42,124 nt of DNA from a virus. Lineage: Duplodnaviria > Heunggongvirae > Uroviricota > Caudoviricetes. Both the position numbers and the translations under genes were made by a program. Positions 4,529 to 42,124 of this stretch are shown here, piece by piece. The notes beneath the pieces are model-generated. The model was given only the letters and a program-made list of their open reading frames with translations, made no database searches and was not told the origin of the DNA. The DNA lies in the IMG/VR virus record IMGVR_UViG_2909282993_000003, positions 1 through 42,124 of that record; one strand, written 5' to 3'. Position 1 is the first letter of the stretch. Each line of letters starts with the position of its first letter.

Positions 4529-4586
4529 AAAAAGGGCGGCAGAGCAGTCACGGAGTAAAACTGATACCGCTAAACGCCACCAGAAA
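4529..4586 (-). ncRNA. dicF: DicF small RNA (ftsZ-targeting antisense sRNA) with intrinsic terminator
   Basis: Reverse complement reads TTTCTGGTGGCGTTTAGCGGTATCAGTTTTACTCCGTGACTGCTCTGCCGCCCTTTTT, differing at about two positions from the DicF sequence I recall; ends in a GC stem plus U-run. Confidence 0.85.
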
Positions 4587-8455: not shown

Positions 8456-8878
8456 GTGGCAAAAGTTTTTACACAAGAAGAGCGGGAAAAAATTAAAGGG
8501 CAGGTGGTGGAACTCGTGCGCCAGAGCGGTCGTGAGACGTTACGGCAACTGGAAGTCAAGACAGGTGCGACAAGATATCTGATGAGCGTTCTCGCAAGAG
8601 AGCTGGTTGCCAGCGGCGATGTATACAACTCTGGTTACGGGTTATTCCCGTCTGAACAGGCGCGTAAGGACTGGCAAAATGCCCGTAAAAAGCTCTCAAG
8701 GGCAAAGCTGAAGGAACCATCTGCGGTTGATCCGGACCTTATCTGGTCATTACCTGACGGAGAAATACGTCGCTACGACAGGCGTCAGAACATAATCTGT
8801 CACGAGTGCCGGAAGAGTGAAGTTATGCAGCGCATACTAGCATTCTATCAGGGAAATGCTCGATATTTATTGAAGTGA
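8456..8878 (+). CDS. Hypothetical protein (140 aa) downstream of the initiator
   Basis: GTG start preceded by AAGGGGGA; basic protein; too small for a DnaC/P-type helicase loader; no recognisable motif. Confidence 0.5.
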   Translation: MAKVFTQEEREKIKGQVVELVRQSGRETLRQLEVKTGATRYLMSVLARELVASGDVYNSGYGLFPSEQARKDWQNARKKLSRAKLKEPSAVDPDLIWSLPDGEIRRYDRRQNIICHECRKSEVMQRILAFYQGNARYLLK

Positions 8879-9130
8879 TGAGATTAAAGTTTATTAGTTC
8901 AGATATTGATTGGCTCTTTTGTGGAGTAGGGTAGAGTTAGTGTGTTTGTCTGCTTGGTGCCAGCAGCGGATATGTTTAACAACAGAAAGCATTCAGCATG
9001 GTTAGTGGATTTGCAAAGTGGATTAGGATTTGAGAAACTTTGATGAAGTTGTAAAGCTTGTTTCTATAAAAATAGAAATTTAACTAATAGTTAAACACAC
9101 CTCCAGCTTCATTGAAAAGGATTATTAGCT

Positions 9131-10030
9131 ATGATTGATCCACTTATTAGAAACTTACAGAGTGATATTGCACTACTCCAGCTTTATATCGCGCAACGCA
9201 AACAGGCAGGCTTTCATGACATGGAAAGAATAATTGAGTCATTGACCATCTTTATGTTTCGCGCGCTGAAAATGGGTGAACTGGTAAACATGAATCAGAT
9301 TAAAGTTAATTTTCCCGCCATTGATTTAGCTGATAATAAAAACATGATAGCAGTTCAAGTTACTACGAATGCAAGTCCAGCAAAAATTAAAAAAACTATC
9401 GAATCTTTTGATGAAACAAATGAAATAGGAGAGAGTCTGAAAGATAAATACTCTACTTTATATATTTTTGGTTTTTGTAAAGCCTCAAGATACCTAACTC
9501 CAAGTTATTGTAAAATAATCGACCCCAGCTATTTCGTGAATGAACTTTGCGATAAAGCAGATGAAGATATGGTCCAGGATATGATTGACGCCATTCGACG
9601 CCATCATGATTATACATCATTACATCCATGGAGTGATAAAGATTCACTCGAAATTATACTCAATATTATTAATCGCAATGCAATAAAACATCGGATGAGT
9701 TGCGAAGGCAGTCTGTCTGATATGCTCACTGGTTTAAAAGAAATTAATGAAGTAATTACAAAAGGAACAATTCAACGTAAGCAACGTTCAAAATCGATAT
9801 CTGACTTCAAAGATCAAAGCATGGTGAAATTTATGAGAGGTGTAATGGATGATTTGTCTGTTATTCAAGCCATAGTGAACAAATCTAAAGTTAACCAAGG
9901 TGATATGGTTTATATAAGCCATGAAGATATGATTAATATTGATAAATTAAAAGCTAAAATAGCAAGTGATTCATCAGAGATTGCAAGGCTAAATAATATT
10001 GATATAACACTAAATGTTGTTGATTTATAA
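9131..10030 (+). CDS. Hypothetical protein (299 aa) in AT-rich accessory island; possible abortive-infection/defence protein
   Basis: Long uninterrupted ORF in visibly AT-rich DNA, where random stops are frequent; AT-rich promoter-like upstream region; no NTPase motif; contains an Rx4H tetrad (RNAIKH) that may or may not be HEPN-like. Confidence 0.7.
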   Translation: MIDPLIRNLQSDIALLQLYIAQRKQAGFHDMERIIESLTIFMFRALKMGELVNMNQIKVNFPAIDLADNKNMIAVQVTTNASPAKIKKTIESFDETNEIGESLKDKYSTLYIFGFCKASRYLTPSYCKIIDPSYFVNELCDKADEDMVQDMIDAIRRHHDYTSLHPWSDKDSLEIILNIINRNAIKHRMSCEGSLSDMLTGLKEINEVITKGTIQRKQRSKSISDFKDQSMVKFMRGVMDDLSVIQAIVNKSKVNQGDMVYISHEDMINIDKLKAKIASDSSEIARLNNIDITLNVVDL

Positions 10031-10344
10031 TTGTCGATTTAGCAAAACAGAGAATGCTTTGAAAGTTTCACCGAGAAATATTTATTGTGAACCTCCTTAT
10101 TGTTTATCGACTTTTACTCTCCGCTCATTGCAGTACTGTCGGAGAAGGCTACTATGTACAAGAAGCAGCTAACATAAGCGAGCATCACTATTGATATTAG
10201 GAAGAGTATATAAAAACTTCATGCTGAACCTTACAAAAGTAGGTAAACCGGCAATGGCCTAAGTGGCAGGGTCATGTTGATCCGGCACTGCCGAGCTAAT
10301 AATTAACAAGCAAATCACTCTTTCTAATAATTTGTTGAAATAAA

Positions 10345-11004
10345 CTAAATATGTATATGTTTACCAACAACCACATATGAACTACCTGCTTTGCTCCATG
10401 ATTTTATTATTTCTAAATTATTATCTGAGCATATTTTACTTACAGTATCCACATCTAATAAACCATAGTAGAAAGCATTACGAGAGTTTTGGTATATATA
10501 CCCATGCAAATGTTTAATACCGCTCTCGTACCTCTTGAAATAAGAACTTTTGTATTGATTGACAATCAGTGCTTCACCATCACTCTTTAATAATTTTCTA
10601 ATCGCACTGAGGACTTTGTGAATTGTGGATTCACATGGAATTGCGGAAAGCACGTTTGCGCAAAGTATGAAATCATAATGATTTGTTATTTTATCTATAT
10701 TTTCATAAGAAACAATATTAGCATTCTTATAGTTATTTATCACGTAATCTGGAATCGTGGTTTGTACACCTCTGATAATTTGCACTCTTTCTAGTTGTCT
10801 TCTGGAATCTAAAAATGTCACAGTTTCAAATTTATTTACTAATTGTTCTGAATATCTAAGTTTTCCACATCCAAAATCAAGGGCATTGCCATTTTTATTA
10901 GTGCTTTCAATCTGTTTACAGAGATAGTTAGATGGCATAGTGTGCGGTTTCGCTGCATTTTCTGAACGTATGTTTATTCCATTTATTTTGTAATTCAAAA
11001 TCAA
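10345..11004 (-). CDS. Class I SAM-dependent methyltransferase-like protein
   Basis: 219-aa ORF with motif I ALDFGCGKL (GxGxG), downstream acidic and hydrophobic motif YDFILCANVL and LKSDGEALIV, consistent with a Rossmann-fold methyltransferase; AT-rich; 6-nt gap after the upstream membrane-protein gene. Confidence 0.8.
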   Translation of the reverse strand: MILNYKINGINIRSENAAKPHTMPSNYLCKQIESTNKNGNALDFGCGKLRYSEQLVNKFETVTFLDSRRQLERVQIIRGVQTTIPDYVINNYKNANIVSYENIDKITNHYDFILCANVLSAIPCESTIHKVLSAIRKLLKSDGEALIVNQYKSSYFKRYESGIKHLHGYIYQNSRNAFYYGLLDVDTVSKICSDNNLEIIKSWSKAGSSYVVVGKHIHI

Positions 11005-11010
11005 CCTCGT

Positions 11011-11718
11011 TTAAAAAATATTGTTATTGTTAAAGAATTCTTTTATTTTGCTATCAGGTATTTGTCTTACTTGGCTTTCTGTTCTTGGTTTAACTGATGC
11101 TATGAAAATAAGGAAGTCAAATGCGACAAGAGAAATAATCCACAACCAAAGATTAATTAAAGAGCCAGTAACAGAGAATATATTTGTTAATTTGGCGATA
11201 CTTATTATTAAAATAGTAACAAATGCGATTACTGTATGTTCAAAGAAAACCCAAAAGTAATAAACTTTGTTCCAGAAAAGTTCAACGTAATGTTTGTCTT
11301 TTAACTCTTTAACTTCTGGGTAATACAGTTTACTCATTACCTTGTGAGATTCTTCAGTAGTTAATTTTCTCGTAACGCCTGCAATTTTTGCTAATGGTTT
11401 AATAATTAAATGACTATCCCACATCTTCCTTATTTCAATAATTTTTGCTACATTATTATGTAGATCTAAAGCTCCACTAATTACTGACCAAAAAACTGAA
11501 GATGCAATTGGTAATATGCCAAAGGTTAATATCCATTTAATAAATTCCTCGTAGTCTTTAACGGGGGGGATATACTTGGCATTAATGCCAACCAATGGCA
11601 TGTAGCCATAAATGACTAATGATAGGTAAAATATAAATGTAGTAATAAAAGTCGCCTTATGGAGCATAGGCAACATTTCATTATAACTCTTTGGTGGTTC
11701 TAACATTTTACTCTCCAA
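11011..11718 (-). CDS. Integral membrane protein (about 4 predicted TM helices), first gene of an operon with the methyltransferase
   Basis: 235-aa ORF with four long hydrophobic segments (two N-terminal, two C-terminal) around a central soluble region of about 80 aa; AT-rich; same strand as, and tightly linked to, the methyltransferase. Confidence 0.75.
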   Translation of the reverse strand: MESKMLEPPKSYNEMLPMLHKATFITTFIFYLSLVIYGYMPLVGINAKYIPPVKDYEEFIKWILTFGILPIASSVFWSVISGALDLHNNVAKIIEIRKMWDSHLIIKPLAKIAGVTRKLTTEESHKVMSKLYYPEVKELKDKHYVELFWNKVYYFWVFFEHTVIAFVTILIISIAKLTNIFSVTGSLINLWLWIISLVAFDFLIFIASVKPRTESQVRQIPDSKIKEFFNNNNIF

Positions 11719-12448
11719 ACATTCAAAAAAAAGCTAATCTTCTATAATAACGAAATTCAGCTGGCACAATTAAAGATTAATTGCCACCAATTTCTTGATT
11801 TTATAATTTTATCTAAATGTTTTTGATTAATCTAGTCCTAAAAGAAACCTACTGCATAAATATTTATGCTGATGACCCACTCCCTGTTCGTTAACACATA
11901 GCAACGTTAGTAATGCATCCTAAGTGATCAATATTTTTGCTAGCTTCATCTGCTCGCTCAAAGGGAACTATAATGTTGGCTTGCGTGTGACTTGGCATGT
12001 TTAAAGAAGTGCTGGTGGTGACTGGTTGCTGTTTTCCATTTCCACAGAACAAAATCATAGAAACTATACCCAGTAGTTGTATTGAATCACTGACGAGACA
12101 GCCTCATATTTATCAGGACTGGTGTACGTCCAATACAGGAGGTTGTGGTGCTGGTTCTCAAATGTGCGCTGGCTATTGCTGCTGTAATGGCAATTTATTG
12201 TCTTGCTGTTGTTCTTATGGATCACCTTTCTGATTGATTTCATATTGGCGAGGTAACGGTAGTTAAGTAGAATTGCTGCGGGTGCTTGAGGCTATCTGCC
12301 TCGGGCATCAACACCAAAGGCAGATAGAGAAAAGCCCCAGTTAACATTACGCGTCCGGCAAGACGCTTAACATTAATCTGAGGCCATATCTATGCTCTAC
12401 ACACGTAGGTTAGCCTCTTACGTGCCGAAAGGCAAGGAGAAGCAGGCT

Positions 12449-12604
12449 ATGAAGCAGCAAAAGGCGATGCTAATCGCCCTGATCGTCATCTGTTTAACCG
12501 TCATAGTGACGGCACTGGTAACGAGGAAAGACCTCTGCGAGGTACGAATCCGAACCGGCCAGACGGAGGTCGCTGTCTTCACAGCTTACGAACCTGAGGA
12601 GTAA
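12449..12604 (+). CDS. hokD: Hok/Gef family type I toxin (HokD/RelF-like)
   Basis: 51-aa product MKQQKAMLIALIVICLTVIVTALVTRKDLCEVRIRTGQTEVAVFTAYEPEE, a typical Hok single-TM peptide matching recalled HokD; upstream 9-bp perfect hairpin at 12292-12327 and a downstream GC hairpin plus intrinsic terminator, typical of hok mRNA folding elements. Confidence 0.85.
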   Translation: MKQQKAMLIALIVICLTVIVTALVTRKDLCEVRIRTGQTEVAVFTAYEPEE

Positions 12605-15739: not shown

Positions 15740-15815
15740 GGCCCTTTAGCTCAGTGGTGAGAGCGAGCGACTCATAATCGCCAGGTCGCTGGTTCAAATC
15801 CAGCAAGGGCCACCA
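15740..15815 (+). tRNA. tRNA with CAU anticodon (Ile2/ileX-like or Met)
   Basis: 76-nt cloverleaf folded by hand: acceptor GGCCCTT/AAGGGCC, D arm GCTC/GAGC, anticodon loop CTCATAA, T loop TTCAAAT, 3' CCA encoded; closely resembles recalled host ileX. Confidence 0.85.
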
Positions 15816-15816
15816 A

Positions 15817-15893
15817 CCGCCACTGGCTCATCAGGAAAGAGCGTCAACCCTTTAAGTTGAGTGTGCGAGGTTCGAGTCCCCGGTGGCGGTCCA
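15817..15893 (+). tRNA. tRNA-like gene, anticodon ambiguous (loop CCTTTAA; reads UUU with a non-canonical C33); possibly degenerate
   Basis: Acceptor CCGCCAC/GTGGCGG, D arm GCTC/GAGC, T loop TTCGAGT, CCA encoded; T stem has one mismatch; anticodon loop lacks the conserved U33. Confidence 0.5.
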
Positions 15894-15895
15894 GT

Positions 15896-15971
<76 letters not shown>

Positions 15972-15974
15972 TAT

Positions 15975-16049
<75 letters not shown>

Positions 16050-41857: not shown

Positions 41858-42124
41858 ATGCTGCCGCAGCATAGCGATATTGAAATAGCCTGGTATGCTT
41901 CGATACAGCAGGAGCCGAATGGCTGGAAGACCGTCACCACACAGTTCTACATCCAGGAATTCAGTGAGCATATTGCGCCACTTCAGGATGCTGTAGATCT
42001 GGAGATCGCAACGGAGGAAGAAAACTCGTTGCTGGAAGCCTGGAAGAAGTATCGGGTGTTGCTGAACCGTGTTGATACATCAACCGCACCTGATATTGAG
42101 TGGCCGACTTCACCTGCAGAGTAA
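41858..42124 (+). CDS. Tail fibre assembly protein, C-terminal portion (likely 5'-truncated tfa)
   Basis: 88-aa ORF ending ...[36 protein letters not shown], the conserved Tfa C-terminus; shorter than a typical Tfa (about 190 aa). Confidence 0.6.

Follow-up and report, generated by a model that had tools for sequence, protein, structure and literature searches.

A stand-alone SMEK-domain gene in an Escherichia coli prophage cargo slot as a candidate single-gene anti-phage nuclease

Introduction

What might a 299-aa protein contribute when its gene lies, with its own leader, in an AT-rich island of a lambdoid Escherichia coli prophage? This question is raised by the window analysed here, the whole 42,124-nt stretch of IMG/VR virus record IMGVR_UViG_2909282993_000003. 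An initial annotation had described the product as unknown, had singled out the string RNAIKH as a possible HEPN-like RNase motif next to a charged, coiled-coil-like C-terminal third, and had proposed an abortive-infection (Abi) effector. The protein is less anonymous than that description implied, as its RefSeq record is already titled 'SMEK domain-containing protein'. Furthermore, a scan for Rx4H alone proves a poor guide to this gene, because the informative domain sits at the other end of the protein. By combining profile searches, predicted structures, residue conservation and comparative gene neighbourhoods, we arrive at a reasonable candidate for an anti-phage nuclease, in which a SMEK/Mrr-like nuclease fold is joined to a helical C-terminal domain that may act as its regulator.

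Results

A functional gene in a variable cargo slot

The window is a lambdoid (Qin/Rac-like) E. coli prophage inserted beside potC, and its 8800-12300 portion is 100% identical to E. coli O169:H41 strains. Genes run from a cI-like repressor through cro, ydaT, a replication gene and a DUF977 gene to an AT-rich island, followed by hokD/sok, rem, DUF968, rusA and Q (coordinates in Table 1). The AT-rich setting ascribed to the gene is borne out, with a GC content of 0.30-0.35 over about 8880-12100 compared with 0.45-0.53 in the flanking DNA. Phage Tritos carries in this slot, from a DUF977-type gene to hokD, a 444-aa FRG-domain protein (locus L002, 4317-5651) that corresponds to the PADLOC candidate system PDC-S15 (1e-98); because a candidate defence system takes up the slot in Tritos, we regard the DUF977-hokD interval as a variable cargo and defence hotspot.

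Several other elements were seen along the prophage. The sok antisense RNA (Rfam, 114 bits) overlaps hokD to the right of the island (12280-12454, 12449-12604). The DicF sRNA (Rfam, 68.6 bits) lies at 4534-4585 on the minus strand beside dicB and ydfD, as given by the annotation of an identical RefSeq region; DicF, dicB and ydfD make up a Qin-type cell-division inhibition cassette. Four tRNA genes (Ile, Lys, Thr and Gly per RefSeq) are located at 15740-16046, just 3' of the Q antiterminator, and Rfam IS009 is matched over its full length (129 bits against a gathering score of 117) at 41881-42084, near the right end of the window.

The ORF itself is complete, exactly as the initial annotation had it, and is indeed preceded by an AT-rich non-coding leader of its own, of ~250 nt, whose plus strand holds no ORF of at least 40 aa. 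A simple consensus scan returned no sigma-70 site in this leader, no terminator was detected by scanning between the DUF977 gene and the ATG, and scans of the leader and 3' region for inverted repeats, promoters and terminators were uninformative. The reported absence of an NTPase motif also holds, with no Walker A motif in the protein and no NTPase family matched in Pfam or NCBIfam.

More than 100 full-length homologues were collected, and a full-library scan matched 543 cluster representatives at E<=0.001. Compared with an E. coli copy at 88% identity, the whole gene has a dN/dS of 0.30. Because of these many homologues and the purifying selection, we take the gene to be real and functional rather than a chance ORF. 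By domain, dN/dS is 0.41 for the N-terminal and 0.20 for the C-terminal part; the C-terminal domain is the more strongly constrained of the two.

Table 1. Positions of the gene, its domains and residues, and the surrounding island in the window.
Feature	Protein positions	Window positions	Strand	Basis or remark
AT-rich cargo island between DUF977 gene and hokD/sok, ~3.2 kb		8880..12100	.	composition and annotation
AT-rich non-coding leader		8879..9130	+	direct reading of sequence
Shine-Dalgarno AAGGA		9117-9121	+	9 nt 5' of ATG 9131
299-aa ORF with stop	1-299	9131..10030	+	ATG to stop; RefSeq WP_032200795.1
SMEK_N / Mrr-like PD-(D/E)xK nuclease domain	1-157	9131..9601	+	
Catalytic-type residues of nuclease core		9236..9385	+	conservation and alignment to Kordia Mrr domain
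E36	36	9236-9238	+	
D65	65	9323-9325	+	
Q76-V-T78	76-78	9356-9364	+	
K85	85	9383-9385	+	
Four-helix-bundle C-domain, no known family	158-299	9602..10027	+	predicted models
HPWSD string	165-169	9623-9637	+	only D169 deeply conserved
Most conserved polar C-domain positions (also R182, G212)		9635..9793	+	93-98% in 41 representatives
D169	169	9635-9637	+	
RNAIKH, R182-H187	182-187	9674..9691	+	end of first C-domain helix
E192-G193	192-193	9704-9709	+	
K221	221	9791-9793	+	
Methyltransferase		10345-11004	-	
Membrane protein		11011-11718	-	

The N-terminal domain has a SMEK/Mrr-like nuclease fold

Two curated models place the N-terminal part of the protein in the SMEK_N family, each well above its cut-off: Pfam PF21941 (SMEK_N) matches aa 10-120 with 79.7 bits (cut-off 27) and NCBIfam NF033859 matches aa 5-97 with 105.3 bits (cut-off 30). 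This membership is accompanied by a solved homologue and a restriction-endonuclease-like alpha/beta core. Indeed, a profile built from 98 homologues retrieved PDB 26bh, the Mrr domain of the Mrr-APAZ pAgo of Kordia jejudonensis, over aa 20-145 (E 1.6e-13), and the strings E...NFPAIDLAD...QxT/S...K...T are common to this structure and the 299-aa family. A PADLOC match to Aga_REase-PNTD1-PNTD2 (1.4e-20) covers the nuclease part only, at positions 9-143 of the 463-position profile, and Pfam Mrr_cat gave no match to the protein at E<=1. The initial annotation had named HEPN, Abi and SMEK-type folds for comparison; the SMEK-type fold is the one that we recover, in this domain, and no HEPN match was obtained for the C-terminal one, as described below.

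The nuclease core carries an invariant catalytic-type constellation. Among 41 cluster representatives, reaching down to 19% identity, E36, N55, D65, Q76 and K85 are conserved in every sequence, with T78 kept in 95% and otherwise replaced by S, and the Kordia Mrr domain aligns the same core residues (AIDLAD...FQITS...K). In the predicted structure the core consists of helix 31-45, strands 66-68 and 73-81 and helix 83-94, and the modelled placement of the core residues on these elements fits an E...D...(E/Q)xK layout. T78 stands at the position of the canonical (D/E)xK lysine, and the invariant K85 opens the following helix, seven residues beyond T78. This arrangement recurs in the Kordia domain, which likewise has T in place of the lysine. 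K85 may stand in for the canonical lysine, and the predicted nuclease activity would then rely on this relocated residue. That E36, D65, Q76 and K85 never vary speaks for a catalytic role.

In our full-library scan, SMEK_N recurs as the N-terminal module of NACHT/STAND-TPR and PIN-TPR-GreABC proteins. An N-terminal module is the usual position of an effector. In a branch of short Argonaute systems, SMEK has been described as an Mrr-like nuclease effector (PMC10810196; PMC12205087; bioRxiv 10.1101/2023.06.08.544223), and the Kordia SMEK complex was reported to have weak collateral DNase activity (PMC12205087). A search of the literature with the family, its Pfam accession and the RefSeq accession returned nothing beyond Argonaute papers.

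A second large class of SMEK_N proteins, 320-355 aa in length, was also encountered (P0180, P0192, P0195, P0198, P0216, P0224, P0231 and others); its members have a different, unannotated C-domain of ~190 aa with a conserved terminal 'DFS/T.LD'. SMEK_N joined to a small, variable C-domain thereby appears to be a recurrent architecture.

The C-terminal four-helix bundle and the HEPN reading

The same four helices of the C-domain (169-182, 195-210, 229-251 and 264-287), together with small beta elements, emerge from the full-length model and from one built for aa 129-299 alone. The C-terminal third had been called charged and coiled-coil-like; neither description survives, as its share of charged residues is 29% against 26-27% elsewhere, with a net charge of +1, and it is predicted to form two long helices of the four-helix bundle, not a coiled coil. 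The C-domain as a whole is acidic-to-neutral, with a net charge of -1.

The RNAIKH string on which the HEPN proposal was built is certainly in the protein, yet it turns out to say little. When the 299-aa protein is shuffled, 23% of the resulting sequences contain one or more Rx4H strings and 55% one or more Rx4-6H, and the protein holds a second Rx4-6H match, RKQAGFH at aa 23; given these shuffle frequencies, the presence of an Rx4H lies within chance. Nor are both motif residues kept in homologues. R182 is found in 95% of the 41 representatives (39/41) and A184 in 98%, but H187 in only 71% (29/41), with D in its place in 8/41 (20%) and N, C, I or Q in one each. Close relatives have R182 and A184 invariant and H187 in at least 90%; in members still further removed the stretch becomes R.A[LF]..D....EG, and no histidine consistently makes up for the loss. 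Other positions of the domain are better conserved than H187 in the same 41 representatives, namely R182 itself, D169, E192 and K221 (95% each), G193 (93%) and G212 (98%), and the E192-G193-S194 stretch forms a beta bridge in the model. To us, R182...E192-G193 looks like a clamp or switch in a loop, conserved for structural reasons, rather than a catalytic dyad.

Searches for a HEPN domain point the same way. At E<=0.001, Foldseek comparison of the C-domain with the PDB gave nothing. Two proteins with helical domains that the HEPN census lists as inactive HEPN, GlnE and DrrA, came up at ranks 47-48 with probabilities of 0.08-0.10, which is noise. No HEPN family was hit in a Pfam scan of five isolated C-domains at E<=10, nor did HEPN appear in PDB profile searches from two alignments (A2 and A5; E<=10), of which the A5 search returned only coiled-coil noise. 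The C-domain profile (A5) also retrieved only SMEK_N proteins or fragments and no fusion to another effector, in a search that depends on shared words. Topology likewise disagrees. The HEPN domain is defined by an Rx4-6H at the end of helix 3, running into the loop to helix 4, and by an insert between helices 2 and 3 (PMC3710099), whereas RNAIKH ends the first helix of the bundle (169-182); the two helices before it (132-142 and 145-156) belong to the SMEK/Mrr domain, whose limits are set by the Pfam profile, the 26bh alignment and the full-length Pfam matches seen in other proteins.

The HEPN fold is a four-helix bundle, and circular permutations of it are known, so we keep a divergent, permuted HEPN under consideration as a very doubtful reading. 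It would make the C-domain an RNase with R182 and H187 as its active site, and the protein an Abi RNase or, with the SMEK domain, a dual DNase/RNase. Some features do sit well with it: a small polar residue (N, S or D) follows R182 in 32/41 representatives, and in 38/41 the last helix has D or N at the position of D271, which could correspond to the acidic residue of HEPN helix 2 if the domain were circularly permuted. Moreover, RNAIKH closes one helix of a four-helix bundle and continues into the loop that connects to the next, as in HEPN; D in place of H is tolerated in some HEPN families; and fusions of REase to HEPN as well as neighbourhoods with SymE are known for DUF4145-type HEPN (PMC3710099), two SMEK relatives being adjacent to SymE. 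Set against these features are the lack of any sequence or structural HEPN match, the position of RNAIKH on the wrong helix and the poor conservation of H187. With conservation, topology and searches all counting against it, the initial claim of a HEPN-like RNase is not upheld, and a strongly diverged, permuted HEPN giving a dual-activity protein seems to us very unlikely.

One further candidate was examined and rejected. The PDB profile search weakly matched the catalytic-loop region of a Fic protein (PDB 7cb8, E 1.6) through an 'LHPYxDxD' string ('LHPWxDxD' in the C-domain). Fic/Doc proteins are recognised by HxFx(D/E)GN(G/K)R with an invariant His; the protein lacks the GNGR part, and no more than 12/41 representatives keep H165, so that we treat the match as chance.

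A lone, mobile gene found in defence hotspots

Among 5426 complete E. coli genomes, 150 (~3%) carry the gene, in every case on the chromosome, and 145 copies share at least 99% identity. Across 50,697 deposited phage genomes, tblastn found one phage, a Klebsiella prophage deposited as two records, with a partial match only, and PHROGs yielded only a weak hit (4e-4), to a family whose function is unknown.

We compared 11 contexts of homologues at 45-88% identity and saw no resemblance between contexts in the genes flanking the homologue on either side. The Cupriavidus homologue is accompanied by Hachiman (HamA and a helicase), a DUF87 ATPase and SymE; that of Citrobacter by Lamassu (LmuB_C) and the PtuA-like PDC-M01A/B; and one from a metagenome by a SMODS and S_4TM pair and ArdC. 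In Yersinia the gene lies in an ICE-like region with a DNA methyltransferase, AbiGi and ArdC, in Pantoea in a P4-like satellite (primase, AlpA and Ash), and in Enterobacter in integrase and resolvase islands or, in another case, in the order yebG, SMEK, SymE and TacT/TacA. A DRT-type SLATT protein is found beside it in Pseudomonas, an Abi_alpha gene in a two-gene insert in Vibrio, and two different prophages carry it in E. coli. The single gene is thus mobile and resides in phage-defence hotspots, although this placement in defence islands is only an association.

Two details of these neighbourhoods deserve mention. A SymE-type toxin gene directly adjoins the SMEK homologue in Cupriavidus taiwanensis (L006, 8154-8369) and in an Enterobacter (L011, 7407-7871); DUF4145 HEPN-REase proteins have been reported near symE (PMC3710099). 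In Pseudomonas (L003, 7001-10736) the homologue heads a co-oriented cluster of SMEK, a 219-aa protein, SLATT_5 and a 309-aa unknown, in which the 219-aa protein has a weak, sub-threshold match to HEPN_RiboL-PSP (0.0039) and the SLATT_5 protein matches the DRT-associated SLATT at 2e-31.

Across the 11 contexts we saw no conserved antitoxin or partner gene beside the SMEK homologues, and so none of the conserved adjacent antitoxins that mark a type II toxin-antitoxin system. Since no antitoxin-like neighbour is conserved, the nuclease would need to restrain itself.

The same distribution bears on whether the gene defends the host at all. It could instead serve the cycle of the prophage, by degrading host or competitor DNA in lytic growth or through a nuclease-free superinfection exclusion, or could be a dead scaffold or regulator. 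Its position downstream of the early-right replication genes, from which it could be read from PR, would be in keeping with such roles, as would the failure to find a promoter of its own, the replacement of K by T at the canonical nuclease site and the title 'regulator' on some homologue records. We nevertheless find these roles quite unlikely: the protein is not confined to prophages but is also encountered in defence islands of chromosomes and in integrative elements; a single phage with a partial match among so many phage genomes argues against a core phage function; the invariant core residues speak for catalysis; and the 'regulator' titles find no domain support in Pfam.

The adjoining methyltransferase and membrane-protein pair

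Beyond the SMEK gene, the island encodes a methyltransferase and a membrane protein on the opposite strand. The methyltransferase matches TehB-type and generic class I families in Pfam and NCBIfam, not DNA methyltransferase families, and has a weak PADLOC match to mad2 (8e-5). It might be supposed that the SMEK gene, this class I SAM methyltransferase and the membrane protein form one three-gene system, either restriction-modification-like or a toxin with its immunity. The SMEK gene and the pair are indeed each found in 150/5426 E. coli genomes, the whole island being present in all 150, and the trio is kept in the 88%-identical copy within a different prophage. However, P2-like prophages of Providencia and Enterobacter asburiae carry the pair behind ogr, and a lambdoid prophage of E. 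hormaechei carries it behind O/P, in each case with no SMEK gene, and the pair is missing beside SMEK homologues at 74-82% identity and beside all more distant ones. Furthermore, the methyltransferase is of the TehB-type, small-molecule class, leaving the gene with no linked, co-varying DNA methyltransferase of the restriction-modification kind, and SMEK gene and pair are convergent, not co-transcribed. Because the modules are distributed independently, we reject the three-gene system as extremely improbable and consider the island to hold two independent cargo modules in one hotspot.

The pair is of some interest in its own right. The membrane protein (231-235 aa, multi-pass, no Pfam family) is followed by the TehB-like class I SAM methyltransferase, and its homologues outside E. 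coli are always followed by a TehB-like methyltransferase. They constitute a conserved, mobile module of two genes, possibly an uncharacterised moron or defence pair. A relationship between these two proteins and the Pseudomonas 219-aa and SLATT proteins was considered and dismissed, no kinship having been found.

Discussion

Here we have traced a 299-aa prophage gene to the SMEK family of Mrr-like nuclease domains. Part of the initial proposal is retained in this assignment: the idea of a defence effector is partly supported, now through the SMEK nuclease domain and the defence hotspots, and its HEPN route falls away. By analogy with characterised SMEK proteins, we judge the chances about even that the gene encodes a stand-alone immune-type nuclease, with SMEK as effector and the C-domain as regulator, acting through DNA degradation and abortive infection. 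In such a scheme, the SMEK domain would most likely be a metal-dependent DNase, in which E36, D65 and Q76 bind a divalent ion and K85 provides the lysine. The four-helix C-terminal domain, unique to the 299-aa family, would be the regulatory part and most likely holds the nuclease inactive in the lysogen, until a phage-derived cue releases or oligomerises it. Non-specific DNA degradation would then lead to abortive infection, and the lysogen population may thereby be protected. These proposed steps are modelled on the behaviour of SMEK in Argonaute and STAND systems, in which the nuclease is silent until the sensor part oligomerises; a helical bundle of 140 aa is unusual as a sensor.

Perhaps the gene represents a previously unrecognised single-gene anti-phage system, in which SMEK is gated by a new four-helix sensor whose D169/R182-x-A/E192-G193/K221 switch detects a phage product. 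We hold this more specific version tentatively and give it a little less than an even chance.

Mrr-family nucleases are classic modification-dependent enzymes, and the main rival to the abortive-infection reading is accordingly a Type IV-like restriction, in which incoming modified or structured DNA is cut directly, the C-domain dimerises or reads the target, and the cell survives. The closest nuclease homologue named for SMEK is AspBHI, itself modification-dependent (bioRxiv 10.1101/2023.06.08.544223). In keeping with a Type IV enzyme, the SMEK gene stands by itself across its contexts and is not accompanied by a cognate DNA methyltransferase, and relatives adjoin SymE, which belongs to the E. 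coli immigration-control region. Yet no modified-base reader (SRA, winged helix or YTH) is recognisable in the 299-aa protein, the C-domain is the acidic-to-neutral helical bundle described above, and in every characterised setting SMEK is a trigger-activated, non-specific effector. On balance we consider Type IV-like restriction unlikely. Compared with Mrr and AspBHI, moreover, the domains come in the opposite order, nuclease first; the protein lacks any known domain for binding DNA or its modifications; and T78 occupies the position of the canonical lysine.

The abortive-infection reading draws on two groups of known systems. The first is the short pAgo SMEK/Mrr-APAZ effector (Kordia KjAgo, 'SPARMA', PDB 26bh; PADLOC Aga_REase-PNTD1-PNTD2), whose N-terminal nuclease domain is homologous to that of the 299-aa protein and is an immune effector nuclease. 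Unlike SPARMA and SPARDA, the 299-aa protein has no APAZ domain and no Argonaute gene nearby, its neighbours being the DUF977 gene, the methyltransferase and the membrane protein instead of a MID-PIWI gene, and in contrast to the Kordia effector the nuclease is joined at its C-terminal side to a four-helix bundle of 140 aa and is encoded by a lone gene. The second group comprises STAND/NACHT (Avs-like) and PIN-TPR-GreABC proteins, in which the same SMEK_N domain takes the N-terminal effector position. Their logic is presumably shared: the nuclease would stay in check until a cue is sensed by the C-terminal part. Compared with STAND/Avs proteins, however, the 299-aa protein has neither a P-loop NTPase nor repeats, and is 299 aa long against 450-1500 aa. 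HEPN Abi and toxin proteins (AbiD/F/J/U2/V, HepT, RnlA and DUF4145) offer a more superficial likeness, in a helical bundle, an R-polar-x3-H string at a helix end and a setting in defence islands and prophages, in addition to the existence of REase-HEPN fusions (PMC3710099); they are set apart by the absent sequence and structural match, the misplaced motif and its poorly conserved H.

The SMEK domain and its RefSeq label were already known; what is new is the minimal stand-alone architecture with a new C-terminal domain, for which PADLOC has no system model combining SMEK_N with a four-helix C-domain. As a candidate single-gene defence system, it is solid and testable, and would be no surprise to specialists. 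SMEK/Mrr-like nucleases are known as effectors in short Argonaute and STAND proteins, switched on by large sensor modules, and the 299-aa version spreads alone through prophage, satellite, ICE and chromosomal-island hotspots of alpha-, beta- and gammaproteobacteria. If the proposed mechanism is true, this would be the smallest known context of a SMEK effector, in which neither an Argonaute nor a STAND NTPase takes part. If the gene defends its host, it would add to bacterial immunity a system that current defence finders do not call, and would offer a minimal model for how a SMEK nuclease is silenced and then triggered.
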